From: Minisyncoccia bacterium | GTDB taxonomy: Bacteria > Patescibacteriota > Minisyncoccia > UBA6257 > 2-01-FULL-56-20 | DNA length: 64,000 bases | Reading direction: 5' to 3' | Assembly (NCBI GenBank): GCA_050008535.1 | Contig: JBEKML010000002.1 | Location: forward strand, 148,881-212,880 | Shown: piece after piece, positions 1 through 54,896 of the stretch | How the letters are laid out: each line of letters begins with the position of its first letter | How positions within the stretch are numbered: position 1 is the first letter of the stretch | Position numbers and translations under genes: made by a program | The notes under the pieces: generated by a model | Told to the model about the DNA's origin: nothing | Seen by the model: the letters and a program-made list of their open reading frames with translations, nothing else | Database searches by the model: none

Positions 1-1085
1 ATCAGAGCTTCATGATCGAAAACAAAAAATATTCGGAGGTGGAATATTTCGAGAAGCTCAAAGAATACGACCCGGGAACCTCCCGCGGCATTGAATCCGC
101 AAAGGAAAAATTCGCGGAGGTCTCAAAGAACGCGATCCATAAATTCGCGCGCATAACCAAGGCCGTGAACGCCACGGGGGACAATCTCTATAATGTAAAG
201 GACGTAAAGGCATGCTTTGACCTGCACGACCTTCAAAACGTGCGGTACGCGCTTCGGGGATGGACCGTGAAGGACTCAATGGATATGTACGGCACGGACG
301 ACACCCAGTGGGATTACGAGAGCGTCAATAACGGCTTGTACGCTTCCCATCTCATCTTCACCACGAACTGCCACACGCACTGCATGGACATCCAATATTC
401 CGACTATTGCAGGTCGTCGTCCCATCTCTTCGGCTGCATCTCGGTCAAAAACAAACAATATTGCATTTTCAACAAGCAGTATCAGAAAGAGGAATACGAA
501 GCGCTGGTGCAAAAGATAAAAGCACAGATGGATGCGATGCCCTATGCGGACAAGAACGGGCGGGTGTTCAAATACGGCGAATTCTTCCCGCCGGAGATCT
601 CACCCTTTGTTTATAACGAGGTGGTGGCGCAGGAATATTTTCCCGTCACCGAGGCACAGGCAATAAAAGAGGGTTTTGGGTGGAAGAAAACAGAGGAAAA
701 GAACTATCAAATTACTTTGCCTGCGGAGCAGATCCCGGAACGCGTTACGGAGACGGACGATTTGATATTACAAAAAGTCATCGGTTGTCTTCATGGGGGA
801 CAATGCGATCATCAGTGCTCCACCGCGTTCCGCCTTATTCCGGCAGAATTGCAATTTTACAAACAAACGAACATTCCGATTCCCCGCCTTTGTCCGAACT
901 GCCGCCACTATAAGCGGCTGGGGAAAAGAAACCCCGTTACCCTGTGGCATCGGCGGTGCATGTGCGCTACGAGGCACGACCATCATCTTATGGGGCAATG
1001 CCCCAACGAGTTCGAAACCTCCTACGCCCCCGACCGCCCGGAGATCGTTTATTGCGAGCAGTGCTACCAGGCAGAGGTGGCGTAG
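1..1085 (+). CDS. Cys-rich multi-zinc-ribbon protein, paralog P1 (5'-truncated by window edge; C-terminal ~360 aa)
   Basis: Reading frame is open from the window start to the first listed Met. Shares the CFGCxSxKNKQYCIxNKQY module, the GEFFPxEISPFxYNE block and the C-terminal CPNCRHxKRL...WHRRCMC...ETSYAPDRPEIVYCEQCYxAEVA tail with ORFs 12138-13889, 51271-53130 and 53145-54896. Confidence 0.75.
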   Translation, partial: QSFMIENKKYSEVEYFEKLKEYDPGTSRGIESAKEKFAEVSKNAIHKFARITKAVNATGDNLYNVKDVKACFDLHDLQNVRYALRGWTVKDSMDMYGTDDTQWDYESVNNGLYASHLIFTTNCHTHCMDIQYSDYCRSSSHLFGCISVKNKQYCIFNKQYQKEEYEALVQKIKAQMDAMPYADKNGRVFKYGEFFPPEISPFVYNEVVAQEYFPVTEAQAIKEGFGWKKTEEKNYQITLPAEQIPERVTETDDLILQKVIGCLHGGQCDHQCSTAFRLIPAELQFYKQTNIPIPRLCPNCRHYKRLGKRNPVTLWHRRCMCATRHDHHLMGQCPNEFETSYAPDRPEIVYCEQCYQAEVA

Positions 1086-1094
1086 GGCGCCCCG

Positions 1095-1190
1095 GGCGCC
1101 GTGGAGGCGCCGGGATTTGCACCCGGTTCTCCGCGTTCCAACGACGGTGTCCTAGCTGGTAATAGACGACGCCCCCGCCATCCACGGCGG
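1095..1190 (-). other. tRNA-like / imperfect inverted-repeat structured element (possible degenerate tRNA-Pro-like)
   Basis: On the minus strand: 7-bp acceptor stem GGGGGCG/CGCCTCC plus discriminator A, and a perfect T-arm CCGGG-TGCAAAT-CCCGG, total length 75 nt. The D arm lacks GG, the anticodon stem has a C-C mismatch, and T-loop position 55 is G. An alternative long hairpin fold is also possible. Confidence 0.25.
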
Positions 1191-1443
1191 GTTTACGGTA
1201 GCACAGTAGTGATTAAAACCGCCGAAAATATTTCTAAAGAAAACATAAAACAGCCGCCGAGGCGACCGTTTTATGGGAACGCGGAGATCTAGTTCGTCGC
1301 TATTACAACAAACCGTACCGCCGTGAGACCATTGTACCGCACCACGGAGCGCAGTCAAGAAACATTTTAGAATTTTTTAATGTTTGGCGGCGGCTAGGCG
1401 GTGACGGGCCCTTAAAACGACGCGATTTGCTAGAATTAAGGCA

Positions 1444-3849
1444 ATGCTTGGGTTCTACATTCTTCTCTCGGTCGTCATAGGTGCCGTGGCGGGCATTGCG
1501 GTGTACTTCGGCATTCGCGTCGCGGTGCGGAAGCGGATCGCGTCGTCCTTGAGCACCACGCTCTTTTTGGTGAAGATCCCAAAACCGTCGATGACCGGCC
1601 AGGGGACTCCCGCCGGCGCGAGCGAGCACAGCGACCTCAAAACCGAACTTGCGCACTTTGAACAGCTCCTGGGCAGCATGGCCGCCATCCAGAAGCCGTT
1701 CACCTTCGAGATCGCGGTGCCGCACGTGGGCGAGGAGATCAGTTTTTACCTTGCCGTGCCGAAGCGCTCGTCCGAGGTGGCGGCAAAACAGATCCAGGGG
1801 CTGTGGAGCGGCGCGTCCGTCGAGGCGGCGACGGACGACTTCAATATTTTCAACGTAAACGGCGCTTCAACCGCCGCCTATATGAAACAGAAGGAGCGTT
1901 ACGGCCTGCCTATCCGCACCTATATCGAGCTTGGCACGGATTCGTTTGAGTCCATCCTCGGCGCGCTCGCGAAAATAGACGAGATCGGCGAGGGAGCGGC
2001 GCTGCAGGTCGTGATGCGGCCGGCGCCTTCGGGCGTGAAGGATGAGGTGCGGCACGTAATAGAACGGCTTAAGAAAGGCGAGACCTTCAAAAAAGCGTTC
2101 CACGGGGATTTCCACCGGTCGTTTTCCGACGCGGGCGAAGTTTTCAATCCAAAAACAAAAGAAAAGAAAGCGGAAGAAAAGCAGGAACACGTGGTGGACG
2201 AGGAAGCGGTGAAAGCACTGCAATCAAAGATCACGAAGCCGCTCTTTTTTGTGAACGTGCGGATAGTGGCGTCGGCCGGGTCGCCGTTCCAGGCGAACGA
2301 CATCCTGGACGGCATCGCGGCCGGCTTCAGTCAGTTCGCAAGCCCCATGCGGAACGAGCTCCGGGTCGTCACGCCGCGGAATCCCAGCAAGCTCATCCGC
2401 CAATTCATCGCCCGCGAGTTTGACGCCGGCCAGGCCATGACCCTCTCAACCGAAGAGATCGCAAGCTTCTACCATTTCCCGATCGCTTCCACCGAGACGC
2501 CGCGCGTGAAGTGGCTGAAGTCAAAAGAAGCCCCGCCGCCGGAAGACCTCCCGCAGAAGGGGACGCTCCTCGGCGACGCCGTCTTCCGCGGGCAGATGAA
2601 GCCGGTCTATCTCACGGATGATGACCGCCGCCGGCATCTCTACGTGATCGGGCAGACGGGCACGGGGAAATCCACATTCCTCGGCAACATGGTGATAGAA
2701 GACATCCGGGCGGGCAAGGGCGTGGCGATCATTGACCCACACGGCGACCTTGTGGAGAACGCCCTGGGCTTCGTGCCGAAGGAGCGCCTGGACGACGTGA
2801 TCTATTTCGATCCGGGCGACCTCGCGCGGCCGCTCGGCCTGAACATGCTTGATTACAATATAAACCGGCCGGAGGAAAAGACGTTCATCGTGAACGAGAT
2901 GCAAAGCATCTTCAACAAGCTCTTCCCGCCGGAAACGATGGGGCCGATGTTTGAGCAGTACATGCGGAATGCGCTCCTTTTGATGATGGAGGACATGCCG
3001 AACGAACCAACGACCCTGATCGAAGTGCCGCGCATTTTCACGGATTCCGCGTACCGCGCGCGCAAACTGGAGCGCATCCACAATCCGGTCGTTGTTGATT
3101 TCTGGCAGAAGGAAGCGGTGAAGGCGGGCGGCGAGGCGTCGCTTGCGAACATGACGCCCTATATCACCTCCAAGTTCAACAACTTCATTTCCAACGACTA
3201 TATGCGGCCGATCATCGGCCAGCCGAAGTCGGCGTTCAATTTCCGCGAGGTGATGGATTCGGGGAAAATTTTATTGATCAATCTTTCCAAGGGGAAAATA
3301 GGGGATATCAACGCGGGGCTCCTTGGGATGGTCTTTACGGGGAAGATCCTCATGGCCGCGCTCTCGCGCATTGACGTGGCGGATGCGGCGCAGCGGCGGG
3401 ACTTCAATCTTTACATAGACGAGTTCCAGAACTTTACGACGGATTCTATCGCGACGATTTTGTCCGAGGCGCGGAAGTACCGCCTGAACCTGACGATGGC
3501 GCACCAGTTCATCGGCCAGCTGACAGACAAGATCAAAGATGCGGTCTTTGGGAACGTGGGATCTATGCTTGTGTTCCGGGTTGGCGTGCAGGATGCGGAG
3601 TTTCTTGTGAAGCAATTTGAGCCGGTGTTCAACCAGAATGATTTGCTTAATATTGATAATCTGAATGCGTATGCGAAGATTCTTATTAATGGGCAGACGT
3701 CGAGGCCGTTCAATATGAAGGTGGGGACGATGTCGTGGGGAGGGGGGAATAAAGAACTTGCTGGGAAGCTTAAGGAATATTCAAGGATGAAATACGGAGC
3801 TGATCGGCAGGCTATAGAAGACGAAATTTATCGGCGGCTTCGGGAATAG
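1444..3849 (+). CDS. T4CP-like ATPase (VirD4/TraG/TraD/TrwB-type) with N-terminal TM helix and a large N-terminal domain
   Basis: Walker A HLYVIGQTGTGKST is followed by the AIIDPHGD motif, which matches TrwB HLLIVGATGTGKS...VIVDPNGD. Walker B is NLYIDEFQNF (the DEF type typical of coupling proteins). There is one N-terminal TM segment. The gene is paralogous to the partial ORF at 62778-64000. Confidence 0.6.
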   Translation: MLGFYILLSVVIGAVAGIAVYFGIRVAVRKRIASSLSTTLFLVKIPKPSMTGQGTPAGASEHSDLKTELAHFEQLLGSMAAIQKPFTFEIAVPHVGEEISFYLAVPKRSSEVAAKQIQGLWSGASVEAATDDFNIFNVNGASTAAYMKQKERYGLPIRTYIELGTDSFESILGALAKIDEIGEGAALQVVMRPAPSGVKDEVRHVIERLKKGETFKKAFHGDFHRSFSDAGEVFNPKTKEKKAEEKQEHVVDEEAVKALQSKITKPLFFVNVRIVASAGSPFQANDILDGIAAGFSQFASPMRNELRVVTPRNPSKLIRQFIAREFDAGQAMTLSTEEIASFYHFPIASTETPRVKWLKSKEAPPPEDLPQKGTLLGDAVFRGQMKPVYLTDDDRRRHLYVIGQTGTGKSTFLGNMVIEDIRAGKGVAIIDPHGDLVENALGFVPKERLDDVIYFDPGDLARPLGLNMLDYNINRPEEKTFIVNEMQSIFNKLFPPETMGPMFEQYMRNALLLMMEDMPNEPTTLIEVPRIFTDSAYRARKLERIHNPVVVDFWQKEAVKAGGEASLANMTPYITSKFNNFISNDYMRPIIGQPKSAFNFREVMDSGKILLINLSKGKIGDINAGLLGMVFTGKILMAALSRIDVADAAQRRDFNLYIDEFQNFTTDSIATILSEARKYRLNLTMAHQFIGQLTDKIKDAVFGNVGSMLVFRVGVQDAEFLVKQFEPVFNQNDLLNIDNLNAYAKILINGQTSRPFNMKVGTMSWGGGNKELAGKLKEYSRMKYGADRQAIEDEIYRRLRE

Positions 3850-4074
3850 GCCTCTGCCTGCGGCCTTGCCTTTGCGGGTACGGGCGTTCTCGCGCTCCAG
3901 CGGCGCGAGCCACCCTGCTCTCTCGCCCCGATTGCCGAAATGCACCCAATGGCATTTCGGACCAAGCCAATCGGGGCTCCGAGAGCCCCCGCCAAGGCAA
4001 GGGCGCAGGCGGAGTTCCATCCATTGAAAAGAATGGCAAAAAATCGTAAAATTTGAGAAAGTTCTAAGAAGAAA

Positions 4075-4953
4075 ATGGCCAAGAGAAAACTTATAAAGAA
4101 GTCAAGGAAGACTTTAGGAAAATTTAATGCCCGGGAGCGTAAGATAATGGAAAATCTTATGCCAGCATATTACAAACAAGGTAGCTTTGCCTTGTATCAC
4201 GGAAACTCTTTGGATGTTTTGGCCGAATTCCCCGAGAACTCGGTGGATATGATATTTGCCGATCCTCCATACAATCTTTCCAATGGTGGATTTTCAGTAC
4301 ATGCAGGGAAAATGGTAAGTGTAAATAAGGGAGATTGGGATAAAAGTAGAGGATTTAAAGGCGATTACGATTTCCATTACAAATGGCTGGAAGCAGTAAG
4401 GCGCATACTGAAGCCAGGTGGTTCATTGTGGGTGAGTGGGACTTATCATTCAATATATCAGTGCGGACACGCAATTCAGGCTTTGGGTTACCATATTCTA
4501 AACGATATTGCATGGTTCAAACCAAATGCATCGCCAAATTTAAGTTGCCGATTCTTTACAGCAAGCCATGAAACATTAATATGGGCCCGTAAAGATACGA
4601 AAGGGAAGCACGTTTTTAATTATGCGGCGATGAAAAATGGTATCTGGAACAGCGATTTTCTAAAAAAACCGAATGTGCAAATGCGATCAGTGTGGGCTAT
4701 TGGAACACCAAAATCAGAGGAAAAGAAGTTTGGCAAACACCCAACTCAAAAACCACACGAGCTATTAAAGCGTATCGTTCTTGCAAGCACCAACAAGGGA
4801 GACTTGATAGTGGATCCCTTTACGGGGAGTTCAACAACGGGCGTTGCGGCTAATCTTTATGGCAGAAAATTTATCGGCATCGATACGGAAAAAAAATTCC
4901 TCGACCTCTCCATCAAACGGTTTGAAGATATGATCAGGAATCAATTGGTATAG
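4075..4953 (+). CDS. Type II DNA methyltransferase, beta-class, probably N6-adenine (or N4-cytosine)
   Basis: Motif IV DPPY (FADPPYNL) lies N-terminal to motif I FxGxG (DPFTGSSTTG), which is the beta-class order. The gene sits in an AT-rich island. Confidence 0.8.
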   Translation: MAKRKLIKKSRKTLGKFNARERKIMENLMPAYYKQGSFALYHGNSLDVLAEFPENSVDMIFADPPYNLSNGGFSVHAGKMVSVNKGDWDKSRGFKGDYDFHYKWLEAVRRILKPGGSLWVSGTYHSIYQCGHAIQALGYHILNDIAWFKPNASPNLSCRFFTASHETLIWARKDTKGKHVFNYAAMKNGIWNSDFLKKPNVQMRSVWAIGTPKSEEKKFGKHPTQKPHELLKRIVLASTNKGDLIVDPFTGSSTTGVAANLYGRKFIGIDTEKKFLDLSIKRFEDMIRNQLV

Positions 4954-4954
4954 T

Positions 4955-5533
4955 CTACCTTTTTGTATAGCCTGGTAGGGCGGCCTGAAGAACTTCCGTG
5001 TAGTGAAGCTTATTATCAATATAGTCGCGAAGTGCTGTGAGGAGATCGTGAAACATATAGGCACCCGCGCGGAGCTTTTCGTTTTTCGAGAATAATTCGA
5101 TAACCGTTGCAACGTAATCAAGCGAGAGGGTATAAGGTTGATCTATGTGGGCATATTTTGATGTAATTTCTTCCACGGTTTCGAGTTGATAATTATTCCG
5201 TTCTTCAACTGAGAAAAATGGTTTGCTGCGATCGTAAAATTTGATGTAATATTCAATAATTTCCCGTACTTCGGCGCGGTATTGCGGAATTTTTAGAAGA
5301 AGATCAACTACCCAAAACGTATGTGTCGGCGGTCTGAGTCGTTTGTCTCCGCCAGGGATTAAGATTTTAATGACGAAGTCCAATTCAGGGTTTGCTCCGC
5401 GACTTCCTTGGAAAAGACCAATTAGTGTTCCATCCCGCGTTGTGTAGGTCTTAAAAGCAGAGACGTTTGGACGAATTTGTTTCAAATTCGTCCCGTCATA
5501 ATATTTGGGGTTGTAAACCAATGGCGCTGGCAT
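4955..5533 (-). CDS. Restriction endonuclease second part (C-terminal or specificity portion) or separate subunit
   Basis: Its start lies 4 nt after the stop of 5538-6062, in the +1 frame, on the same strand and in the same AT-rich island. No independent motifs were recognised. Confidence 0.4.
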   Translation of the reverse strand: MPAPLVYNPKYYDGTNLKQIRPNVSAFKTYTTRDGTLIGLFQGSRGANPELDFVIKILIPGGDKRLRPPTHTFWVVDLLLKIPQYRAEVREIIEYYIKFYDRSKPFFSVEERNNYQLETVEEITSKYAHIDQPYTLSLDYVATVIELFSKNEKLRAGAYMFHDLLTALRDYIDNKLHYTEVLQAALPGYTKR

Positions 5534-5537
5534 GTTG

Positions 5538-6062
5538 CTAAGTTTGAGGCTTTGGGAGACCTAAAAAATCAAGGGGAAGACTTTGAAAATAATAATGGCA
5601 ACCAACTGCTTTTATGAAGTCCAGTGTGTCTTTATATTCTGGCTTTTGGAACCAATCACTTAAAATATAAATAAACTCAGTCTCGATCCCGAGCGGCTTA
5701 AACAATTTTTGATATTGCCTCTTTTTAAAATCGCATGTTTGTAGCTTCTCGTCTACGGATCCAGCGACCGCCTGGAATTTTATTTCTATAATAAAAACTT
5801 TTTTCTGGCTTGGAACATAGAGCGCTTCGTCTGGGAGTAGCTTCTTTGAAAGTACGGTTTTATAATCTACCTCGCGCTCTTCAAGAAATCGATAAAGCTT
5901 GTTCTTGCCGATACTTTGTGCTACTACCTTTCCGGTATGCAGAATCAAGTCGCCATCTACGGAGTATCCTGGCGTTTTGGCAAAGACCAACAGTAAATTA
6001 ACCCGACCCTCAAAATCAAGCCCGACTCGCGTCCTTGCGCCACCAATCCCGTGCTTTATCAT
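5538..6062 (-). CDS. Restriction endonuclease, PD-(D/E)xK nuclease fold (N-terminal part or catalytic subunit)
   Basis: LLPDE...VFIIEIKFQ gives a PD...ExK arrangement. Convergent with the methyltransferase and AT-rich like it. Confidence 0.5.
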   Translation of the reverse strand: MIKHGIGGARTRVGLDFEGRVNLLLVFAKTPGYSVDGDLILHTGKVVAQSIGKNKLYRFLEEREVDYKTVLSKKLLPDEALYVPSQKKVFIIEIKFQAVAGSVDEKLQTCDFKKRQYQKLFKPLGIETEFIYILSDWFQKPEYKDTLDFIKAVGCHYYFQSLPLDFLGLPKPQT

Positions 6063-6155
6063 GGGCGTTTAACCAAATTTTAATCATTTTTTAATGAATT
6101 GTACAAGTTCCACGTTCCAGTGTGCTCGTCATTATCAACATGGTATAATAAACAC

Positions 6156-6470
6156 ATGAAAAGGGTGGTGGTTTTTGGAGCGCTGCTTCTCGTGGGAATC
6201 GGTTTGATCGCTGTGGCGATGCATCCTGCCTATGCTTACGTAAGTGTTCGCGGCTATTATCGGAGCAATGGGACATACGTCCAACCCTATGTGCGCTCCA
6301 GTCCGAACAGCTTGAAATATGACAACTACAATTATTCTGGAGGAAGCTTATACAACAATTCCTATTACGCACCGACAAAGAATTACAGTCCGAGCTGGTA
6401 TACACCTTCATATGTAACTGATCCATATTATTATCAGGGGAAAAGCATCTATAACTCACGTCGTTTTTAA
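6156..6470 (+). CDS. Small secreted Tyr/Asn/Ser-rich protein with signal peptide
   Basis: MKRVVVFGALLLVGIGLIAVAMHPAYA looks like a signal peptide; the mature part is rich in Y, N and S. The six-frame track start at 6099 is probably an upstream extension. Confidence 0.4.
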   Translation: MKRVVVFGALLLVGIGLIAVAMHPAYAYVSVRGYYRSNGTYVQPYVRSSPNSLKYDNYNYSGGSLYNNSYYAPTKNYSPSWYTPSYVTDPYYYQGKSIYNSRRF

Positions 6471-6585
6471 TCAAAATTTAATGATTAGTATGTTATATTT
6501 GGATTTGACGTATGATTTATAAAATGTTAAAATCCGTCATCAGCAACTTTGTCGGAGTTGTTTGTGTATAATAAAGACAACCCTT

Positions 6586-7461
6586 ATGGGGAAGAAAATA
6601 ACTAAGAAAAGAGTTCACCAAAACGAGTCACTAATAGGAGAGTTGATTGAATTGCGGACCGAAGTCTGCAAGTTGCCAAGATTGTCGCCGATCGAAAAAG
6701 AACTTCATGAGGCAGAGGTCCGTTTTGAAGCAACCTATCATTCCAATAAACTAGAGGGGAATAAGCTTTCTGAGGATGAAGCGAGAAGCGCGATAATGAT
6801 ATAAGTTTTTATGGCGTTTCCGCAGAATAAAAAAGATTTGGATATCTTAGAAGAAAGAGGCTATTGGAAGGCCTCTTCTTTTTTAAGTAATACAGTGCAC
6901 AAGCTGATTCGTAAAAATTTGCCGTTTGAACTTGGATATGTTAAGCAGGCCCACAAGATTACTTTCGATGCCGCTAATCAATCAGGCATAGCTGGCAAAT
7001 ATCGTCGTGACAATCCGGAGCTGAAGAGAATTGATGGATCATTGCTTGTTATTACGCATTGGCACAATGTTCCGAACGAAATGGCAAAATTGGATACAGA
7101 AGTACGTTTAGCCACGAGGGGATTGAGGAAGGTGAGGACGAAGGGACAGTATAGAAACATTATTGAAAAGGCTGCGCGTCTTTCTCATCGATTAGCATGT
7201 ATTCATCCTTTTGAAAACGGAAACGGACGCGCTTCACGCTTGCTCCTAAATGCTATTCTTATGCGAGCCGGATTGCACGAAGTAGCTATTAAGGTAGATA
7301 AAGATAGATACCTACGAAGTATGCGGCAGGCAGACGACGGAGACTTCTCGATGCTCAAAAAAATAATATTAGAAAGTTTGGTTGAGAATGAAAAAAAATT
7401 GTACAAGTTAGTCAAAAGGAAGCAAGCGGAACAAGGCAAGCATAAAAAGTGCCGTTCTTAG
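6586..7461 (+). pseudogene. Fic/DOC family protein (AMPylator-like) interrupted by an in-frame TAA at 6802-6804
   Basis: The upstream piece carries the Fic N-terminal YHSNKLEGNKLSEDE motif. The downstream piece, in the same frame, carries the catalytic HPFENGNGRASR (HPFx[DE]GNGR) motif. A TATAAT box lies at 6566-6571. Confidence 0.55.
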
Positions 7462-7574
7462 CGGTTTCAATATGAACTGTCGTGATCCGGTGGGGCCAGA
7501 TTCCCTACCTTACTGACTGATGGTGGTGGCGGGTGGCCCACGCTTGTTTGTGCTATACTGAACCTACAACTGAA

Positions 7575-7710
7575 TGGGTTATCCAGAGTGCGGGGAGGGA
7601 ACTGGCCCTACGATCCGCCGGCAACTTGCGAGGGCAAAGTGCTAATTCCAGCCCGAAAGGGGAAGATAAAGGTCGTAGCGCTTTTTCTTTCGGGAATGGC
7701 GTTTTTTATT
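7575..7710 (+). ncRNA. SAM-I (S-box) riboswitch with terminator-like expression platform
   Basis: GGTTATCCAGAGTGCGGGGAGGGAACTGGCCCTACGATCCGCCGGCAACT and AAAGTGCTAATTCCAGCCCGAAAGGGGAAGATAAAGG match the S-box consensus (GAGGGA.UGGCCC.AUGA..CCGGCAACC, GGUGCUAAUUCCAGC, and a P1 pairing TTATC/GATAA). A hairpin cccgaaag/ctttcggg plus a T-run follows, directly upstream of metK. Confidence 0.8.
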
Positions 7711-7738
7711 TGGTAATAAACAAAATAAAATTAAAATT

Positions 7739-8686
7739 ATGAACACAAAAATACGAACGGCGGAATTTGTTTCGCCAAGGCATCCGGACAAAATGTGCGA
7801 CCTTATCGCGGACACGCTTCTTGATGCGTTCCTTGCGGGGGATAAAAAGAGCCGCGTCGCGGCGGAGGTGATGGGCGGCCACGGGCACATCACTGTTTCG
7901 GGGGAGATCACGAGCCGGACGGACGTGGATATGGAAAAGATCGTGAAGGGCGTGGTGGGCGAGGAGTACAACGTTCACGTTTACCTTACGAAGCAGAGCC
8001 CGGAGATCGCGCAGGGCGTGGACACGGGCGGCGCGGGCGACCAGGGGATCATGATGGGGTATGCTACGCGGGAAGCCGAGAATTTTATGCCCCTGGAATA
8101 CGAGCTTGCGCGGGATCTCTGCCGGAAGATATATGCAAAATATCCGCATGACGGGAAAACGCAGGTGACGGTGGAGGGCACGAAGGTACGCACGGTCGTC
8201 GCGAGCTTTCAGGGTACAAAGACCCCGGAACTTATGGCGCTCGTGCGGGGGCTTATAAAAGCCGACGAGTATCTTGTGAATCCTGCGGGTGAGTGGATGA
8301 TGGGCGGCTTTGACGCCGATTCGGGAATTTCCGGCCGGAAGATCGTCATTGATAACTACGGCCCGGAGGTGGGCGTGGGCGGGGGATCCTTCTCCGGCAA
8401 GGATTACACAAAGGTGGACCGGAGCGGCGCCTACATGGCGCGCCGCATCGCGGTGGACTATTTGAAACAGCACGCGGACGTGGAAACGGTGCGCGTGAAG
8501 CTCGCGTACGCGATAGGGAAGGCGGAGCCCGTGATGGCGGTTTTGGACGCGGACGGCGTGGAGGTTGCCATTCAGGGATATGACCTCTCGCCTGCGGGGA
8601 TCTTCAAGTTTCTGGAGTTGGACAAGGTCCGGTGGGCGGAGACGTCGAGCTGGGGGCACTTCGGACGTGAGTTCAGTTGGGGATAG
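7739..8686 (+). CDS. metK: S-adenosylmethionine synthetase (short form)
   Basis: SPRHPDKMCDLIAD and GAGDQGIMMGYA are MetK signatures, and the C-terminal GHFGRE block is present. Confidence 0.9.
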   Translation: MNTKIRTAEFVSPRHPDKMCDLIADTLLDAFLAGDKKSRVAAEVMGGHGHITVSGEITSRTDVDMEKIVKGVVGEEYNVHVYLTKQSPEIAQGVDTGGAGDQGIMMGYATREAENFMPLEYELARDLCRKIYAKYPHDGKTQVTVEGTKVRTVVASFQGTKTPELMALVRGLIKADEYLVNPAGEWMMGGFDADSGISGRKIVIDNYGPEVGVGGGSFSGKDYTKVDRSGAYMARRIAVDYLKQHADVETVRVKLAYAIGKAEPVMAVLDADGVEVAIQGYDLSPAGIFKFLELDKVRWAETSSWGHFGREFSWG

Positions 8687-8711
8687 GGAAGAGATGCGTT
8701 AGAATAGTTGT

Positions 8712-12137: not shown

Positions 12138-13889
12138 ATGGATGCCGAAAGCCGCAACTGCGCAAAATGTAAAAGCCAGTTTGTTGTTGAGCCGGAGGAT
12201 TTTGATTTTTACGCGAAGATAAGCGTTCCGCCGCCCACGTGGTGCCCGGAGTGCCGCAATCAAAGGAGGATGGCGTGGCGCGAGGAACGCGTGCTCTACC
12301 GCGGGACCTGCGCGTTGTGCGGAAAAGCGGTGGTTACCATGCACGCGCCCGGCGGTCCCTTCACGATCTATTGCCGGGAGTGTTACAAATCCGACAAGTG
12401 GGACTCGACGAGCTACGGGCGCGACTACGATTTCAAGAAACCGTTCTTTACGCAATACCGCGAACTTATGGAAGCCGTCCCGCGGCCGGCGCTCACGGGC
12501 AATAATTTGGTCAATAGCGATTTCACGCACGGATGCGAAAGCGTAAAAAATTGTTACTACCTTTTCTGGAGCTATTTTTCGGAAAACGCGGGGAACTGCT
12601 ACGGACTGCTTCTTTCCAAAAACGCCTACGATTGCTACGTGGTGGACAATTCCGACCATGTGTACGAGTCGTTGCATTCCAACCGTATGTACAAGATCAG
12701 GTTCGGCTATTTTTCCGACGAGTGCCTCGATTCATCGTTCCTTTACAATTGCCTCGGGTGCTCTGATTGTTTTGGGTGCATCAACCTAAGGAAACAAAAA
12801 TACTGCCTTTTCAACGAAAAATTGTCCAAAGAAGAATACTCCGCGAGGATCAAGGAGTGGGACTTGGGAAGTTATAAAAAACTGCAGGAGGCGAAGGAGA
12901 AATTCCGGGCTTTGTATATGTCCGTCCCGCACCGCTTCGCCCATGTCGTAAGCAGCCAAAACGTCACGGGGGATATCATACGGGACACGAAAGATTGCAA
13001 AATATGTTTTTGCGCATTGGATGGCGTGCAAAACTGCAAGTATCTGTACGCCGGCGGCCTCAATCTCAAAGACAGCATGGATGTAAGCGCCGGCGGCGAT
13101 ACGGCGGAGTTGCTTTATGAAGTGCACGGGGTGACCGGGCATGCATCGCGGTGTTTTTTCTCGGTGGGAGGAGGGAACAGCAGGGATACCTGGTATTCCG
13201 ATTGGGCGGATAATTCATCGGATGTATTCGGCTGCGTTTCTTTAAGGAACAAGCAGTATTGCATCTTGAACAAACAATATTCCCGCGAGGAGTATGAAAA
13301 ACTTGTCCCAAAGATCAAACAGCACATGGACGCCATGCCGTTCGTGGACAAGAAGGGGCGCGCGTACAAATTCGGGGAATTTTTCCCGACGGAACTTTCC
13401 GCGTATGCCTATAACGAAACATTCGCCTTTACCTGGTATCCAAAGGTGTTAACGAAGGACGAGGTGCTTGCCGAAGGTTGGCGGTGGCAGGACCCGTCGA
13501 CACGCTCTTACGAGGTCACCATGAAGGCGGAAGGTCTTCCCGACCATATTCGTGACGCAAGCGATTCAATTTCAAAAGAGACCATCGGCTGCCTGCACGC
13601 CGGAGCGTGCAATGAACTATGCACGACCGCGTTCCGCATTTCGCCCGAGGAGCTCGCTTTCTATCGAAAGATGAATGTTGCCCTGCCGCGGTTGTGCCCA
13701 AATTGCCGGCACGTGCAACGATTGAAATGGCGGAATATTTTCCATTTGTGGCATCGGCGTTGCATGTGCATCCATGCAGGTCATTCCCATGCCGGGCAAC
13801 CGTGCCCAAATACTTTTGAGACCACTTTCTCGCCGGAAAAACCGGAGGTTGTTTATTGCGACCAGTGTTACAAAGCCGAATTCCTATGA
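12138..13889 (+). CDS. Cys-rich multi-zinc-ribbon protein, paralog P2
   Basis: N-terminal CxxCxxxFxVEPEDFxFYxKIxVPPPTWCPECR zinc ribbon. Two internal CFGCxxLRxxKYC modules. C-terminal CxTAFRIxPEELxFYRKxNxALPRLCPNCRH...WHRRCMC and a tail PEVVYCDQCYKAEFL. A TATAAT box lies at 12125-12130. Confidence 0.8.
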   Translation: MDAESRNCAKCKSQFVVEPEDFDFYAKISVPPPTWCPECRNQRRMAWREERVLYRGTCALCGKAVVTMHAPGGPFTIYCRECYKSDKWDSTSYGRDYDFKKPFFTQYRELMEAVPRPALTGNNLVNSDFTHGCESVKNCYYLFWSYFSENAGNCYGLLLSKNAYDCYVVDNSDHVYESLHSNRMYKIRFGYFSDECLDSSFLYNCLGCSDCFGCINLRKQKYCLFNEKLSKEEYSARIKEWDLGSYKKLQEAKEKFRALYMSVPHRFAHVVSSQNVTGDIIRDTKDCKICFCALDGVQNCKYLYAGGLNLKDSMDVSAGGDTAELLYEVHGVTGHASRCFFSVGGGNSRDTWYSDWADNSSDVFGCVSLRNKQYCILNKQYSREEYEKLVPKIKQHMDAMPFVDKKGRAYKFGEFFPTELSAYAYNETFAFTWYPKVLTKDEVLAEGWRWQDPSTRSYEVTMKAEGLPDHIRDASDSISKETIGCLHAGACNELCTTAFRISPEELAFYRKMNVALPRLCPNCRHVQRLKWRNIFHLWHRRCMCIHAGHSHAGQPCPNTFETTFSPEKPEVVYCDQCYKAEFL

Positions 13890-23761: not shown

Positions 23762-24994
23762 ATGGCCGACAAATCATTTTTGAAAGCGGAGATTGAAAAG
23801 GTTTTGGCGCAGCCAGCGGAAAAGATCTCCGTCGTGCAGCTCGTGGACCTTTTTGTGGAATATGCGTATTTGTTGCGGGCGTCGGACGTGCACATCCAAC
23901 CCGAGGAAAAAATAGTCCGCATTCGTTTTCGCATTGACGGGGTTTTGCACGACGTTTTTGAAAAGATCGGCATCAATAAGACGGTCCACACTGAAATGAT
24001 CAGCCGCATTAAAGTTCTCACGGGTCTGCGTACGGATGAGCACCTGACGCCGCAGGACGGGAGGTTCAAGGTGGGGACGAAGGACTTCGGCGATCTAAAC
24101 GTCCGGGTTTCCATCATCCCCACTTATCATGGCGAGAACGCGATCCTCCGGATCCTTGCGGAAACGCAGCAGTTTACGGTGGAGACGCTCGGATTTGCGC
24201 CCGCCGACCTTAAAAAATTGCAGAATGCGATCGGGAAACCGTACGGCATGATCTTAGCGAATGGGCCGACCGGGTCAGGGAAAACGACCACCCTTTATAC
24301 GATTTTGCGGCAACTGAACGAACCGGGCGTTTCCATTATCACGATTGAGGATCCGATCGAATATGCGCTGGACGGCACGACGCAGATCCAAACAAACATG
24401 GACACGGGACTTACCTTTGCGAGCGGACTGCGGTCCATTTTGCGGCAGGACCCGAATATCATCATGGTCGGCGAGATCCGCGACGAAGAAACCGCAGCGA
24501 TTGCAGTGAACGCGGCACTCACCGGGCACCTCATGCTTTCCACGCTCCACACGAATGACGCCGCCACCACCTTCCCGCGGCTCCTTGATATGGGAGTGCC
24601 GCCGTTTCTCGTCGCCTCAACGGTGAATCTTGTGATCGGGCAGCGGCTGATACGGAAGCTGTGCGAACACTGCAAGATCGAGCGGAAATTGACCGCGGAC
24701 GAATTCAAAGGCCTGAAGGAAATCATCCCCGAAGTTGACGAAAAGATGCACTTCCACGCCGCAAAGGGATGCGATATCTGCCACCAGAGCGGTTACGAAA
24801 GCCGGGTTGCGGTGCGCGAGATCATTGAAGTGAAAGATGATATTCGCGAACTCATCACGAACCGGGCGAGCGCCCAGGCGATCAAAGAAGCGGCGATCCG
24901 CGGGGGGATGACGACGATGATCCGCCAGGCGCTCATCAAGGCCTCGGAAGGGCAGACGAGTATCGAAGAGATACTCCGCGTCGTCAATGAGTAG
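23762..24994 (+). CDS. pilB: Type IV pilus assembly ATPase (PilB/GspE family, short)
   Basis: Walker A GPTGSGKTTT, Asp/His boxes, and a tetracysteine CEHCK...CDIC. Confidence 0.85.
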   Translation: MADKSFLKAEIEKVLAQPAEKISVVQLVDLFVEYAYLLRASDVHIQPEEKIVRIRFRIDGVLHDVFEKIGINKTVHTEMISRIKVLTGLRTDEHLTPQDGRFKVGTKDFGDLNVRVSIIPTYHGENAILRILAETQQFTVETLGFAPADLKKLQNAIGKPYGMILANGPTGSGKTTTLYTILRQLNEPGVSIITIEDPIEYALDGTTQIQTNMDTGLTFASGLRSILRQDPNIIMVGEIRDEETAAIAVNAALTGHLMLSTLHTNDAATTFPRLLDMGVPPFLVASTVNLVIGQRLIRKLCEHCKIERKLTADEFKGLKEIIPEVDEKMHFHAAKGCDICHQSGYESRVAVREIIEVKDDIRELITNRASAQAIKEAAIRGGMTTMIRQALIKASEGQTSIEEILRVVNE

Positions 24995-28392: not shown

Positions 28393-28393
28393 C

Positions 28394-29809: not shown

Positions 29810-29816
29810 AAGGACG

Positions 29817-46604: not shown

Positions 46605-46652
46605 GAAGCCAGATTATTTGTCTTTTCGTCTTTTTTCGCCTAAAATACAGCT

Positions 46653-47660: not shown

Positions 47661-47671
47661 TTCTTTCCACT

Positions 47672-48535: not shown

Positions 48536-48549
48536 AAAAGTAAAATTCA

Positions 48550-50171: not shown

Positions 50172-50189
50172 ACGGGGTATAATTGAAGC

Positions 50190-51380
50190 ATGATCCAGCG
50201 TGGCATCGCTTCTTTCGGGCTTGATTACGGCCGCTGTCCACCGTGGCTTTTTGAACGGATGGTGAAGCTCGGCCGCGAGATGGCATATGTGCTCGTCGCC
50301 GAGTACGGCCCGGATGAATTCATAAAGCGGATCGCGGATCCGGCATGGTTCCAGTCGCTCGGCACGGTACTGGCGTTTGATTGGAATGCATCGGGGCTCA
50401 CGACCATTCTGACCGCGGCGCTGAAAGAAGCTATCCGCGGCCGCGAGCGCGAGTTGGGGATTTTTATCTGCGGCGGAAAAGGGAAAACCTCGCGCAAAAC
50501 GCCGGAGGAGATCATGCAATGGGGCGAGAAGCTCTCGCTTCCCGCGCCTGCAACGAACAACCTTGTCTACAATTCGAAAATGAGCGCAAAGGTGGATAGC
50601 GCGCTCGTGCAGGACGGGTTCCAGCTTTATCACCATTCGTTTTTCTTTTCGCGCGGCGGCGCGTGGGCGGTCGTCCAGCAGGGGATGAACAAGGAAAAAC
50701 GCTCGGCACGACGGTATCACTGGTTTTCAGAAAATATCAACGACCTTGTTTCAGAGCCGCATTCCGGTATCTCTTCGCCCGTGGTTTTGAACCGCGTTTT
50801 AAATCTTACGGCGAAACAGAGTACGCAAACGCGCGAGATTTCCACCGAGCTTGTGCAGGCGGGCTACGCAACGCTCATGAAAGACATCCAACTTTTGCGC
50901 AAGTATTCCTCGCCGCTTTCGCAGATGGCGCAATTTGAGAACGCGCGCGGGGAGCAGCTTTCGCTTTTGAACCTTGAAACGCGCGAGTTCAAATCCCACC
51001 CGGTGGTATACGAGGATTTTTCAAAGAGCAAATATCTGGAAAAGGTGCTCGCGAAAGTAACCGACCGGAAGCCGGAGAATTATGAAAAACTGATCGCCAT
51101 TGAGGGCGTGGGGCCGAAGACCGTGCGTGCCCTCGCGCTCGTAGGCGAAGTGATCTATGGTGCAAAGCCCTCCTATGAAGATCCTGCGCGTTACAGCTTT
51201 GCGCATGGCGGTAAGGATGCCACGCCGTATCCCGTGGACCGCATAACCTACGACCAGACGATCACGATCCTTGGCGAAGCGGTGCGCAAAACGCGACTCT
51301 CGCCGGACGAAAAACGCCGCGCGCTCGGACGGCTGCAGGTCGGGAGAAGCGGTCAGCAAGGCGCCGGACGGGTGCTATAA
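50190..51380 (+). CDS. DUF763-like protein
   Basis: Large conserved hypothetical protein with an IEGVGPKTVRAL helix-hairpin-helix-like motif. Confidence 0.4.
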   Translation: MIQRGIASFGLDYGRCPPWLFERMVKLGREMAYVLVAEYGPDEFIKRIADPAWFQSLGTVLAFDWNASGLTTILTAALKEAIRGRERELGIFICGGKGKTSRKTPEEIMQWGEKLSLPAPATNNLVYNSKMSAKVDSALVQDGFQLYHHSFFFSRGGAWAVVQQGMNKEKRSARRYHWFSENINDLVSEPHSGISSPVVLNRVLNLTAKQSTQTREISTELVQAGYATLMKDIQLLRKYSSPLSQMAQFENARGEQLSLLNLETREFKSHPVVYEDFSKSKYLEKVLAKVTDRKPENYEKLIAIEGVGPKTVRALALVGEVIYGAKPSYEDPARYSFAHGGKDATPYPVDRITYDQTITILGEAVRKTRLSPDEKRRALGRLQVGRSGQQGAGRVL

Positions 51381-53130
51381 TTGGAGTATTCCCGGGCTAG
51401 AAACCAAAACCTGCCAAAACTGCAAACAACCGTTCGTCATTGAGCCGGACGATTTTGCGTTTTATCAAAAGATTGATGTCCCGCCGCCGACGCTTTGCCC
51501 GGAGTGCCGTATGCAGCGTAGGCTCGCGTGGAGGAATGAGCGATCTATTCACAAACGCGCCTGTGATCTATGCGGAGCTAGTGTTATTGGAATGTATCCT
51601 GCCACTACGAAATTTCCGGTTTACTGCCATTCTTGTTGGTGGTCGGATAAATGGGACCCCATCGTGTATGGAAGGGAGTATGATCCGAGCCGGTCCTTTT
51701 TTGAACAATGGAAGGAGCTGCAAAATGTGGTGCCTCGTCCGGAACATAATAACAGCGGAAACATTGTGAACAGTGCGTATACAAACTGCGCCGCGGACAT
51801 GAAGAATTGCTACCTGGTTTTTGGGGCACAGAAAGACGAGAATTCCATGTATTCGCATTATTTAAATCAATCAAACGAATGCTTAGACCTTCTGCACGTT
51901 TTTTCTTCTGAAAAATGCTACGACTGCTTTGATGCTGAGCAATGCCACTCGGTTCGATATTCGCAATCGTCGATGAATTGTCGAAACTCGTTTTTTCTAT
52001 ATGACTGTAAAAACTGTTCCGACTGCATCGCGTGTATCGGGTTACGGAACAAGCGATTTCACATCTTTAACGTTCCTTATGCAAAGGAAGAGTATCTGAG
52101 AAAGAGGGACGAATTTCGACTAGACTCCAGACGTGGCATCGAAGATCTAAGGAAAAGATTTCTGAGTAACGAGCTGTATCGTGCTTTTCCGCGCAGATTC
52201 TTTCACGGCCAGTTGAACACAGCGAGTACGGGTGATTACATTAGTGAAAGTGAAAACGCGTTAAGCTGTTTTTACGCAAAGGGTTTGCGGGGCTGTAAAT
52301 ACGTTTTCTGGGCGCACAACATGAAGGATTCATATGACTACTTTGCTTTTGCAGATCCCGATGAGCTTGCTTACGAAAGAGTGTCGGGCGGGTACGGGGA
52401 TTATAATTGCAAATTTACTGAAGCATCATGGATAGGTAATCGCGACCTCGAATATTGCGGGCTTTGCTATAACACTAGATCTCTTTTTGGGTGTATCGGT
52501 CTCAGGAAAAAAGAGTTTTGTATTTTGAACAGGCGGTATGCGGAGGCGGAATACCATGAACTCGTTGTACGGATTCGCAAGCAGATGACGGAAACGGGGG
52601 AATACGGAGAATTTTTCCCAATATCGCTTTCGCCGTTTCCATATTGGGATTCGGTTGCACAGGAGCATTTCCCATTGACAAAAGAACAGGTCTTGGAGAA
52701 GGGGTATGGATGGCGCGAGCCGGATCCCCGCACTCAGAAAATTACGAGAACGCCAAGCGAACTGCCGGATACGATTGCCGAGGTGTCGGACGATATTTTG
52801 AACGAAACGATCGGCTGTGAGCATGGCGGGGTGTGCGCCCATCAATGCACGGTCGCATTTCGGATCACTCCTGAGGAGTTAAAATTCTATAGAGAACAGA
52901 ATATTCCGCTTCCAACGCTCTGTTTTCAGTGCCGCCATGCATCTCGCATCGCCCTTCGAAGCCCGCTTAAGCTCTGGCACCGCAAATGCATGTGCGATGG
53001 GAAGGTATACCAGAACACCGCCACCCACCAGCATCAGGATGTATGCCCCACCGGATTCGAAACCTCCTACGCCCCCGACCGGCCGGAGATCGTCTACTGC
53101 GAACAGTGCTACAACGCGGAGGTGGCGTAA
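51271..53130 (+). CDS. Cys-rich multi-zinc-ribbon protein, paralog P3 (start uncertain)
   Basis: TCQNCKQPFVIEPDDFAFYQKIDVPPPTLCPECR matches the P2 and P4 N-termini from about residue 40. Two CIGLRNK/CIGLRKK modules. C-terminal CTVAFRITPEELKFYREQNIPLPTLCFQCRH...WHRKCMC...ETSYAPDRPEIVYCEQCYNAEVA. The only in-frame ATG/GTG/TTG lies 110 nt inside the upstream gene; a TATAAT box lies at 51375-51380. Confidence 0.75.
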   Translation: MAKRCAKRDSRRTKNAARSDGCRSGEAVSKAPDGCYNWSIPGLETKTCQNCKQPFVIEPDDFAFYQKIDVPPPTLCPECRMQRRLAWRNERSIHKRACDLCGASVIGMYPATTKFPVYCHSCWWSDKWDPIVYGREYDPSRSFFEQWKELQNVVPRPEHNNSGNIVNSAYTNCAADMKNCYLVFGAQKDENSMYSHYLNQSNECLDLLHVFSSEKCYDCFDAEQCHSVRYSQSSMNCRNSFFLYDCKNCSDCIACIGLRNKRFHIFNVPYAKEEYLRKRDEFRLDSRRGIEDLRKRFLSNELYRAFPRRFFHGQLNTASTGDYISESENALSCFYAKGLRGCKYVFWAHNMKDSYDYFAFADPDELAYERVSGGYGDYNCKFTEASWIGNRDLEYCGLCYNTRSLFGCIGLRKKEFCILNRRYAEAEYHELVVRIRKQMTETGEYGEFFPISLSPFPYWDSVAQEHFPLTKEQVLEKGYGWREPDPRTQKITRTPSELPDTIAEVSDDILNETIGCEHGGVCAHQCTVAFRITPEELKFYREQNIPLPTLCFQCRHASRIALRSPLKLWHRKCMCDGKVYQNTATHQHQDVCPTGFETSYAPDRPEIVYCEQCYNAEVA

Positions 53131-53144
53131 GGTAGAATAGAGTT

Positions 53145-54896
53145 ATGGATACCAAAACGAAGACCTGTGCGAATTGTAAAACGCGGTTTACTATAGAACC
53201 TGACGACTTCTCGTTCTACCAAAAGATTGATGTTCCGCCGCCGACGTTTTGCCCGGGGTGCCGCTACATCCGGCGGCTTTTGGATCGCAACGAATATAAT
53301 TTTTATCGCCGCAAGTGCAATGCGACGGGAGAAAACATCATTTCAATCTATCGTCCCGACGCGCCGTTCCCGGTGTACAAGCAGGACTATTGGAAATCGG
53401 ATGCGTTCGACGGGCTTGCCTATGGCCGGGATTTTGATTTCAGCCGCCCATTCTTTGAGCAATACGAGGAGCTCCGCCGCGTAGTACCGCACCTCGCACT
53501 TGTGAATGCAAGCAGCGAGAACAGCGAATATACCAATCAATCCCAGGATAACAAGGATTGTTACATGCTCGTTACGAGCAATACGAGCGAAAAATGCATG
53601 TACGGGAGCTGGTGCCAGAATAAATGTTTTTTCTTGTCAGATTGCTATATGGTGGAAGGAAGCGAGTTCTGCTATGAATGCATGAACCTTACGAAATGTT
53701 CCCGTTGCAGATGGTGCCGCGATTGTTCCGACTGCATTGATATTTGTTTTTCAGTTGATTGTCGCGGATGTACAAATTGCTTCGGCTGTGTGGGCCTGCG
53801 AAACAAGCAGAACTGCTGGGGCAACGAACAGTTGGATAAGATTGAGTACGGGCGCAGACTGAAAGAATTCCCATGGACAAATGGGGCCATAGCACGTGCG
53901 CAGGAAGAACTCTCAAAGTTACGAGTAAAGATTCCGGTGAAATACTATCATGGTTCACAAACGCAAAATTCCTCCGGCGACTATCTGGAAAACACACAGC
54001 GGGTGCGCATGGCTTTTAACTGTCGCGACAACAAGGATACGGCGTATATGCAGGACGCGTGGAATCAGACGGAGGATTGCTTGGATTGTACGGAGATTAT
54101 TATTGCGCAGTTGTCGTATGAGATACAAGGCGTTGATACTCCGCATCGGACCATCGTGGCGCGAAGTTGTTTTGATACCGTAGTCGATTCTTGCTATTGC
54201 GATATGTGCTTCAATGCGAACAATTGTTTCGGGTGCTTTGGATTAAAACAGAAACAATACTGTATTTTGAACAAGCAATATTCCAAAGCAGAATATCTCG
54301 CGCTGAAAGAAAAGATAATTGATCATATGAAGCAAGCGGGGGAGTGGGGCGAATATTTCCCGCCGAACGTGTCACCCTTCGCCTATAACGAATCCATGGC
54401 ACAGGATTACTTTCCGCTCATGCGGGAAGAGGCGGTTAAGCGGGGATATTCTTGGTATGATCGCCCCGCCACGCAGTATGACATTACTTTGACCTCGGAT
54501 AAACTGCCGAGAACCATTTCCGAAACCACCGACGATATTTTGAACCAGACGATCCAGTGCAAGACACAGGAGAGCGAAGAAGAAAAAAAGAAAAATCCCT
54601 TGTGTGTTACCGCGTTCAAGATAGTTCCCTTAGAGCTTACGCTGTACCGAAAGATCGGGATTCCCGTTCCCGAGTACTGTTTCCCGTGCAGGCGCACAAA
54701 ACGTTTTGCGTTCCGCAATCCACGTACGCTCTATAAAGGAGTATGCCAATGTAACGGGCCGAAGGCGACATGCAAAAACACCGCGGAACACTTTCATGGC
54801 GCAAGCCATTGTCCCAATGGATTCGAAACTTCCTATGCCCCCGACCGGCCCGAGATCGTCTACTGCGAACAGTGCTATAACGCGGAGGTGGCGTAA
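53145..54896 (+). CDS. Cys-rich multi-zinc-ribbon protein, paralog P4
   Basis: In tandem with P3, 14 nt after its stop. Same N-terminal, internal and C-terminal modules. The last ~85 nt are about 92% identical to P3. Confidence 0.8.
   Translation: MDTKTKTCANCKTRFTIEPDDFSFYQKIDVPPPTFCPGCRYIRRLLDRNEYNFYRRKCNATGENIISIYRPDAPFPVYKQDYWKSDAFDGLAYGRDFDFSRPFFEQYEELRRVVPHLALVNASSENSEYTNQSQDNKDCYMLVTSNTSEKCMYGSWCQNKCFFLSDCYMVEGSEFCYECMNLTKCSRCRWCRDCSDCIDICFSVDCRGCTNCFGCVGLRNKQNCWGNEQLDKIEYGRRLKEFPWTNGAIARAQEELSKLRVKIPVKYYHGSQTQNSSGDYLENTQRVRMAFNCRDNKDTAYMQDAWNQTEDCLDCTEIIIAQLSYEIQGVDTPHRTIVARSCFDTVVDSCYCDMCFNANNCFGCFGLKQKQYCILNKQYSKAEYLALKEKIIDHMKQAGEWGEYFPPNVSPFAYNESMAQDYFPLMREEAVKRGYSWYDRPATQYDITLTSDKLPRTISETTDDILNQTIQCKTQESEEEKKKNPLCVTAFKIVPLELTLYRKIGIPVPEYCFPCRRTKRFAFRNPRTLYKGVCQCNGPKATCKNTAEHFHGASHCPNGFETSYAPDRPEIVYCEQCYNAEVA

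Follow-up and report, generated by a model that had tools for sequence, protein, structure and literature searches.

We analysed a stretch of 64,000 nucleotides (nt; hereafter the window) from a Minisyncoccia bacterium (contig JBEKML010000002.1, positions 148,881 to 212,880), which contains four genes, P1 to P4, for large Cys-rich proteins. These are shown to be members of an ancient multigene family of soluble proteins of around 586 amino acids (aa), specific to the Parcubacteria (Paceibacteria), and patterns of nucleotide identity and codon identity show that recombination has very probably acted through the conserved ends of the genes, on top of constraint on the protein. Taken as a whole, the likely explanation is an ancient family of finger and solenoid proteins, with constrained ends, that recombines through those ends.

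An ancient family of finger and solenoid proteins in Parcubacteria

All four genes are on the forward strand, and the open reading frames (ORFs) were confirmed where the original prediction, made from the sequence alone, had placed them. They are listed here with the domains of P2.

P1: 1-1085 (frame from nucleotide 3), forward strand; cut by the window start, covering profile positions 220-590
P2: 12138-13889, forward strand; complete solitary member, 583 aa
P2 ribbon 1 (zf_Tbcl-like): 12138-12278, forward strand
P2 ribbon 2 (zf_Tbcl_2-like): 12279-12413, forward strand
P2 solenoid module 1: 12489-12923, forward strand
P2 solenoid module 2: 12924-13343, forward strand
P2 ribbon 3: 13590-13772, forward strand
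P2 finger-like tail: 13773-13886, forward strand
P3 ORF: 51271-53130, forward strand; conserved family sequence from 51400
P4: 53145-54896, forward strand; tandem to P3, as predicted, with a 14-nt spacer

The proteins follow the single modular plan that had been proposed for them, with pairwise identities of 38-45%, and are alignable over their whole length. A family hidden Markov model (HMM), run on all ORFs of at least 25 aa in the six frames of the window, found only P1 to P4, and no fragments or remnants. We show an architecture that begins with a zf_Tbcl finger and a CxxC-x17-CxxC (zf_Tbcl_2-type) finger, continues with two duplicated Cys-rich beta-solenoid modules and an alpha/beta region, and closes with another zf_Tbcl finger followed by a C-terminal finger that is zf_Tbcl_2-like. 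Both repeats noticed in the original prediction are borne out, as modules 1 and 2 represent an internal duplication (hhalign 99.9%, E 6e-36), and ribbon 1, at the N-terminus, has a second copy towards the C-terminus, ribbon 3 (hhalign 99.1%, E 1.3e-18). As also predicted, P1 to P4 have no signal peptide and no segment of transmembrane (TM) strength (maximum KD19 1.08), and their Cys content is 4.4-7.4%.

AlphaFold2 (AF2) models of P2 and P4 were confident (pLDDT 83 and 79.5, pTM 0.84 and 0.82, respectively) and mutually consistent. Both show two N-terminal ribbons and a helix, then two solenoid-like modules that are rich in beta structure and have helices after them, an alpha/beta region and two C-terminal ribbons. 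In Foldseek searches there was no match with E <0.06. Left-handed beta-helix and beta-solenoid proteins (hexapeptide acyltransferases, gamma-carbonic anhydrases, the budworm antifreeze protein and bactofilin) resemble the core with weak scores and 3-10% identity, and neither the hexapeptide motif nor the catalytic residues of the left-handed beta-helix enzymes were found in the family.

Pfam and NCBIfam scans of the full proteins returned only sub-threshold treble-clef fingers, below the curated cutoffs (PF23477, 19.5 bits against 27; PF13451, 17.8-18.8 against 24; TIGR04272, 16.6 against 36), and PADLOC and PHROGs scans added nothing; in none of these four was there a toxin or defence match. 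The family's four terminal ribbons have the Cys spacing and motifs of zf_Tbcl (PF13451) and zf_Tbcl_2 (PF23477, TIGR04272). Known members of these domain families are small single-domain proteins or appendages, whereas here four fingers frame a duplicated solenoid core of 400 residues. The putative Cys ligands C8, C11, C36 and C39 are conserved in 98-99% of 203 members, and the tail residues C542, C556, C574 and C577 in 100%. The tail is itself a finger, since its profile matches both ribbon 2 of the family (92.8% probability) and the finger, above the Pfam cutoff, of an ATPase discussed below (type II; 90.6% probability, E 1.3e-6); the latter finger also matches ribbon 2 (95.8% probability, E 6.6e-9). 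The terminal domains are thus predicted zinc-binding fingers. Small Methanosarcina proteins with the CxxC-x17-CxxC domain type bind zinc, as measured by inductively coupled plasma mass spectrometry (PMC12704099).

A search with P2 identified more than 4,711 proteins, all annotated as hypothetical and nearly all labelled as Parcubacteria (Liptonbacteria, Wolfebacteria, Nomurabacteria, Jorgensenbacteria and Paceibacterota/Minisyncoccia). When the proteins found by an exhaustive profile search are clustered at 50% identity, the clusters number 2,074 at E<=1e-30 and 4,858 at E<=1e-3, and their lengths are strikingly uniform. Among the 203 members the median length is 586 aa, with 4-7.6% Cys. We additionally noted a sizeable subfamily of ~550 aa (e.g. 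P0215-P0267), in which the match to the profile breaks off near position 540, so that the canonical finger tail is lacking. The family has no Pfam model and no name, and a literature search found no paper describing it, in line with the original statement that no characterised family came to mind.

Among 78 loci sampled from genomes of species representatives, the HMM identified 251 family ORFs. They are arranged in tandem arrays with all genes in the same direction, the largest holding nine copies in 13.7 kb, and in several genomes the family occupies three or four distinct loci. At least 12 full-length copies are present in the sampled loci of one genome and at least nine in a complete chromosome of 888 kb, compared with four in the window. 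For 99% of 189 members the nearest relative in another genome (median identity 61%) is closer than the best paralog in the same genome (46%). Orthologues of P4 (58-76% aa identity) occur in many lineages, the next identity being at most 50%, and its orthologous group comprises 24 genes, one in each of 24 genomes. It follows that the divergent cores are old lineages of paralogs that have clear orthologues in other genomes, and not cassettes that diversified recently. All copies are full-length ORFs, with an ATG at the N-terminus in 189/203 members. Beside the arrays no small neighbour recurs other than CutA1 (divalent-ion tolerance), whose gene directly adjoins them in 8/78 loci (e.g. L047, 10059-10391) and lies beside an array again in L166 (3748-4053).

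Constraint and recombination at the conserved ends

P3 and P4 occupy a slot that begins at a DUF763 gene and is syntenic in two related genomes (loci L004 and L066), whose family paralogs at this position we term a, b, c and d. The features of the slot, and the tail block of P1, are as follows.

DUF763 gene: 50190-51380, forward strand; conserved left border of the P3-P4 slot, syntenic in L004 and L066
P3 5' conserved block: 51400-51540, forward strand; codes for ribbon 1 and holds a 44-nt block (51466-51509) of the original prediction
Replaced core of P3: 51470-53050, forward strand; 83-98% nt identity to c of L004, 33-58% to a
P3 tail block: 53053-53130, forward strand; mosaic of a-like and c-like sites, holding the 3' crossover
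P4 tail block: 54819-54896, forward strand; 95% nt identity to the P3 tail
P1 tail block: 1008-1085, forward strand; 87% nt identity to the P3 tail, 20/25 same codons
MacB/FtsX permease gene: 55718-56956, reverse strand; conserved right flank, 79% nt identity to L004 and 73% to L066

The gene order is DUF763-a-b-c-...-X-MacB in L004 and DUF763-P3-P4-X-MacB in the window, with the flanking genes and the pair b/P4 70-79% identical in nucleotides. P3 occupies the position of a, and resembles the a locus in its upstream flank, in its first ~60 nt and in the spacer past the stop codon. Its core of ~1.5 kb is, in contrast, ~90% identical overall to paralog c. At the 5' end the informative sites turn from a-like to c-like at ~51445-51470, about 45-70 nt into the gene, in the block coding for EPDDFAFY, and the last 80 nt are a mosaic of both. 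Identity at 4-fold degenerate sites is 0.75 (142/190) between P3 and c, compared with 0.49 (171/352) for the flanking genes pooled (p 2e-9; P4-b 0.41, MacB 0.51, DUF763 0.62), which indicates that the core arrived after the divergence of these genomes. A third occupant, paralog d, holds the slot in L066, and the occupants a, c/P3 and d are only 45-47% identical, as against 82-90% for the flanking proteins. These comparisons show P3 to be a cassette-like replacement, with a c-type core at an a-type position. A chimeric contig is excluded, as five independent assemblies from different samples agree over the P3-P4 locus (99.5-100% identity); at this assembly level, no ongoing switching is visible at the locus.

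The nucleotide identity of the tails had been given as 87-92% for P1, P3 and P4. Over the last 85 nt this holds for P1-P3 (0.87) and P3-P4 (0.92), whereas P1-P4 reaches 0.81. P2, at 0.58-0.62 to the others, does not share the block. The predicted abrupt upstream end of the block is confirmed (0.27-0.34 in the preceding 85 nt), and the similarity stops exactly at the stop codon. Within the last 28 codons, identical residues have the same codon in 20/25 cases for P1-P3, against 44% in the rest of the gene (Fisher p 0.0009), and in 22/27 cases for P3-P4, against 43% (Fisher p 0.0001), so that the tail signal exceeds what protein conservation gives. For P1-P4 there was no significant synonymous excess in the tail (15/26). 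In the 44-nt 5' block, P3 and P4 agree at 41/44 positions, as the original prediction of a highly conserved block would have it, and P2 at 32/44.

We compared same-genome with different-genome pairs across the family, using a predefined Fisher test on the last 28 codons and a position-agnostic scan for tracts, in which a permutation for each pair removes shared codon bias (significance at p<=0.01). In the tail test, 1.2% of same-genome pairs and 0.12% of different-genome pairs were outliers at p<0.001; the different-genome null is well calibrated, and the mean same-codon excess in same-genome pairs is small (0.511 against 0.455). In the scan, 5.4% of pairs from one genome had a significant same-codon tract, 4-5 times the rate for pairs from different genomes (1.2%). 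Within genomes the rate falls from 10% for adjacent genes to 6.5% for genes of the same array and 1.8% for genes at another locus. Of 22 same-genome tracts, 15 lie in residues 1-50, four in the tail, two in ribbon 3 and one in the core, placing 19/22 at the two ends (N-terminal ribbon or C-terminal tail). The family shows a synonymous excess within genomes, in defined tracts and dependent on distance, as expected of a multigene family under gene conversion. The tail tract of P3 and P4 (residues 547-583, p = 0.007 in the scan) is best read as a short gene-conversion tract. The closest relative of P1 is the gene that opens the L025 array (72% aa identity), and the two are collinear, with ~70% nt identity and no mosaic signal.

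A further pair of paralogs, from one array in locus L014 (4205-5954 and 7729-9451), has a same-codon run over residues 131-428, although their overall identity is <55%. Here the core, and not the ends, seems to hold a large conversion tract.

The conservation of the ends across the whole family is mainly caused by protein-level constraint on the zinc-finger domains. The tail protein VYCEQCYNAEV[VA], followed by the stop, is identical in most members and found in all genomes, as the search for the tail motif in relatives that had been suggested now shows. Ribbon 1 is 0.65 identical within subfamilies and 0.63 between them, and the tail 0.64 and 0.59, while the solenoid modules are the least conserved parts (0.43-0.48 within, 0.37-0.39 between). 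The finger-coding ends are kept by strong purifying selection throughout the family and, as we read the data, also serve as crossover points. Neighbouring paralogs are made alike by short conversion tracts in the 5' ribbon block or in the 3' tail, as in the tails of P3, P4 and P1, and occasionally a whole core is exchanged through crossovers in both ends, as in P3.

Several observations weigh against this reading. Conversion is sporadic, with a significant tract in only 5-10% of neighbouring paralog pairs, and at 26 nt the longest exact matches between paralogs of the window, both in the tail (P3 with P1 and P3 with P4), are of marginal length for recombination of the RecA type. The 5' block of P3 and P4 has no significant synonymous excess in the window (12/22). 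Finally, three genomes do not fix which lineage changed in the P3 event, its timing, or whether the donor was in the same or another genome.

The lower GC content that had been noted for these genes is clear for P3 (0.483) and P4 (0.486), compared with 0.551 +/- 0.026 in 17 other genes, and marginal for P1 and P2. At third codon positions (GC3), P3 and P4 have 0.54 and 0.58, against 0.685 +/- 0.05 in the same 17 genes, and P1 and P2 have normal values (0.67 and 0.65). The low GC3 of P3 and P4 is compatible with slot content imported from a relative of lower GC, such as L004 (GC 0.49).

We identified no ATG, GTG or TTG near the family N-terminus of P3. A candidate ATT start (51388-51390) lies in frame, 7 nt past the TAA stop of DUF763, and an in-frame ATT is kept in the two other genomes with a family gene after DUF763 (L004, ~300-345; L066, ~5975-6010). 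These observations suggest that P3 uses a non-canonical start, or that its translation is coupled to that of DUF763 by termination and reinitiation. On identical P3 DNA, gene callers predict either 539 or 269 aa. Of the TATAAT-like boxes considered as leaderless promoters, the one before P3 was rejected, as it includes the DUF763 stop codon.

VirD4-like ATPases beside the arrays, and the wider window

The commonest neighbour of the arrays is a VirD4/TraG-like ATPase (Pfam DUF87, TrwB_AAD_bind, T4SS-DNA_transf and TraG-D_C). We found 35 co-directional ATPase ORFs in 30/78 array loci, compared with 1.7 expected from the background density (around 20-fold), often <100 bp from the array and sometimes on both sides of it. 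These belong to three types: type I, with ~800 aa and an N-terminal TM segment; type II, soluble, with ~620 aa and a C-terminal zf_Tbcl_2 finger (55 bits against a cutoff of 27); and type III, soluble, with ~500 aa and ending in EPLI. The window contains one of type I.

Terminator-like hairpin CCCGCC-ATCCAC-GGCGGG-TTT: 1174-1194, forward strand; between P1 and the ATPase gene
Type I VirD4/TraG-like ATPase: 1444-3849, forward strand; directly downstream of P1, 801 aa, N-terminal TM segment, Walker A at residue 403

The adjacency of arrays and ATPase genes is enriched and facultative. The usual setting of type II (L159-L166) is DUF8128, an ORF of ~177 aa, type III, type II, efp (on the opposite strand), mnmA and comEC, and family arrays are inserted at different intergenic sites of this conserved Parcubacteria backbone. 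In one Brennerbacteria genome, a reverse-transcriptase gene (RVT_1; L163, 10492-11610) is inserted and separates efp from the type II ATPase gene. The finger that type II shares with the family is the strongest hint, from profile comparison, of a functional tie, and lends some support to the partner-recognition alternative raised in the original prediction. In a 2025 survey of Patescibacteria, 5,713 VirD4-like genes were found in 2,918 genomes, only 148 of them near virB4; most are orphans of type IV secretion system (T4SS) clusters, and the authors suggest that they may have been exapted (PMC12102498).

We treat a functional link as a lead only, and several findings speak against it. When the search was reversed, family genes lay within 8 kb at only 2/80 metagenome loci with type I orthologues, which rejects a tight operon link to the ATPase type of the window, and nearby at 2/8 loci for type II. 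Types II and III lack a membrane anchor, and the hairpin that follows P1 in the window speaks for its transcription apart from the ATPase gene. In L166 (104-17357) the backbone from DUF8128 to comEC appears to have received the arrays at two of its intergenic sites, and the adjacency may partly reflect an insertion-prone region.

Tentatively, and with more doubt than confidence, the proteins might be modular binders, with common finger ends for docking and divergent solenoid cores as specificity surfaces, possibly partnering with or handled by the orphan VirD4-like ATPases. A more specific and rather speculative proposal is that the family forms the missing client set of these ATPases in Patescibacteria, as a system of dozens of proteins peculiar to the lineage, the fingers docking on both soluble and membrane-bound forms and the proteins acting as cargo, or cargo adaptors, towards the host, with a repertoire reshuffled through the finger-coding ends.

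By analogy with known systems, the proteins could instead be secreted effectors, with terminal fingers that VirD4-like coupling ATPases would recognise in order to pass them into host cells by type IV secretion. Proteins of a large family that have no Sec signal, in reduced and host-dependent bacteria, would suit this, as would their invariant C-terminus, the enrichment of ATPase genes (all of them co-directional) and the common finger; patescibacterial homologues of type IV coupling proteins are mostly orphans of unknown role (PMC12102498), and recruitment of XVIPCD proteins by VirD4 provides a precedent (PMC8740702). We nevertheless consider it unlikely, given the outcome of the reverse searches and the solubility of types II and III. 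Orthologues that are 58-76% identical across orders have evolved slowly for effectors, which, with the absence of any toxin domain, immunity gene or PADLOC hit, argues against a classical effector role; multi-zinc proteins are moreover poor substrates for unfolding, and no virB4 cluster is apparent in the window.

Otherwise the window is ordinary chromosome of the candidate phyla radiation (CPR), with genes for PGK, RNase H, SAM synthetase, MreB, RRF, an M50 protease, aminoacyl-tRNA synthetases and type IV pilus proteins. The SAM synthetase gene (7739-8686) has a SAM riboswitch upstream of it, at 7576-7672 (Rfam RF00162, 59 bits). A type IV pilus-like cluster at 23762-30284 begins with a T2SSE ATPase (23762-24994), followed by further ORFs, one with a class III signal peptide. 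Beside the type I ATPase gene, positions 4000-7500 form an island of low GC (41-44%, against 53% for the window), which is probably a mobile restriction-modification/toxin island and contains the following features.

N6/N4 DNA methylase: 4075-4953
PD-(D/E)XK-like ORF: 5538-6062, reverse strand
Fic-domain ORF: 6811-7461

Other explanations of the ends, and comparison with known systems

Purifying selection might explain the conserved ends unaided, through invariant finger residues and a shared codon bias. The tail and ribbon 1 are indeed conserved as protein in every sampled genome, the mean excess in same-genome tails is small, and neither P2 nor the pair P1-P4 shows a synonymous excess. However, same-genome tracts remain 4-5 times more frequent after permutation of codon bias for each pair, they depend on distance, and the null from different genomes is well calibrated. 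Selection alone also cannot yield the mosaic of P3, with its synonymous sites at 0.75 against 0.41-0.62, or occupants of one slot that are not orthologous. This explanation is largely refuted, and we hold it to be improbable.

Programmed cassette switching, as in antigenic variation, would involve one expressed copy rewritten from silent donors through the conserved ends. Conserved ends around divergent cores, tandem copies, different occupants of one slot in related genomes and a documented replacement of a whole core are all expected from it. It is nonetheless very improbable, because the copies are all full-length, 189/203 with an ATG of their own, in no layout of expression site and silent cassettes, and are ancient paralogs with 1:1 orthologues. 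A surface-exposed or secreted product would be expected, and the proteins have no signal peptide or TM segment; among the five assemblies that cover the P3-P4 locus, there are no population-level variants.

A constraint on the RNA of the tail, which the original prediction had offered as an alternative, either as mRNA structure or as a ribosome-binding site for the next gene of the array (GAG-GTG codons reading GGAGGTG, present in the tails of P1, P3 and P4), is scarcely credible and both forms were rejected, given folding z-scores of -0.57, +0.32, +0.04 and -1.27 for the four tails, Shine-Dalgarno-like tails that are no commoner where a paralog starts within 30 nt (0.23 against 0.32, p 0.2), Glu codon usage in the tail that equals that of the gene body, and similarity that ends exactly at the stop codon.

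Recombination through constrained, finger-coding ends is thus the reading that we retain. The observation that led to this analysis is confirmed and its interpretation partly supported: tracts at the ends and the replaced core of P3 bear out gene conversion or cassette recombination, although constraint is the main cause of the conserved ends and the cores are ancient and not hypervariable cassettes. Parcubacteria have genomes of only ~0.6-0.9 Mb, yet spend an appreciable share of them on one unnamed family, whose size (2,074 clusters) and conservation across orders mark a clear gap in knowledge of these bacteria. Our analysis provides a domain map with confident structure models, and direct evidence, read from the DNA, that domain-coding ends double as recombination handles, by which whole cores can pass from one array position to another and, probably, from lineage to lineage. 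It also provides a statistically strong, facultative link to VirD4-like ATPases, which were mostly orphaned and of unknown role in the 2025 survey; if this link is functional, their role becomes a testable question.

The X-Tfe effectors of the antibacterial T4SS of Xanthomonadales resemble the family in having paralogs with different cores, one conserved C-terminal domain (XVIPCD) and, tentatively for the family, a link to a VirD4-type ATPase (PMC8740702). However, the XVIPCD has ~120 residues with a Gln-rich tail and no zinc finger, and the C-terminal finger of the family is unrelated to it. X-Tfes also have toxin domains with immunity genes, a complete T4SS and a membrane-anchored coupling protein, none of which was seen for the family, and the adjacency to ATPase genes is facultative here, so that the likeness is only a lead.

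In Neisseria pilE/pilS, Borrelia vlsE and Anaplasma msp2, conserved ends act as crossover points that move divergent central segments between copies, in systems that combine one expression site with truncated silent cassettes, expose their products on the surface and switch at high frequency. The family resembles these systems in that its conserved ends likewise serve as crossover points for divergent central segments. It differs from them in that every copy is complete and has ancient orthologues, the product is predicted to be cytoplasmic and the events are rare. The recombination behaviour of the family is thus a variant of known multigene-family dynamics.

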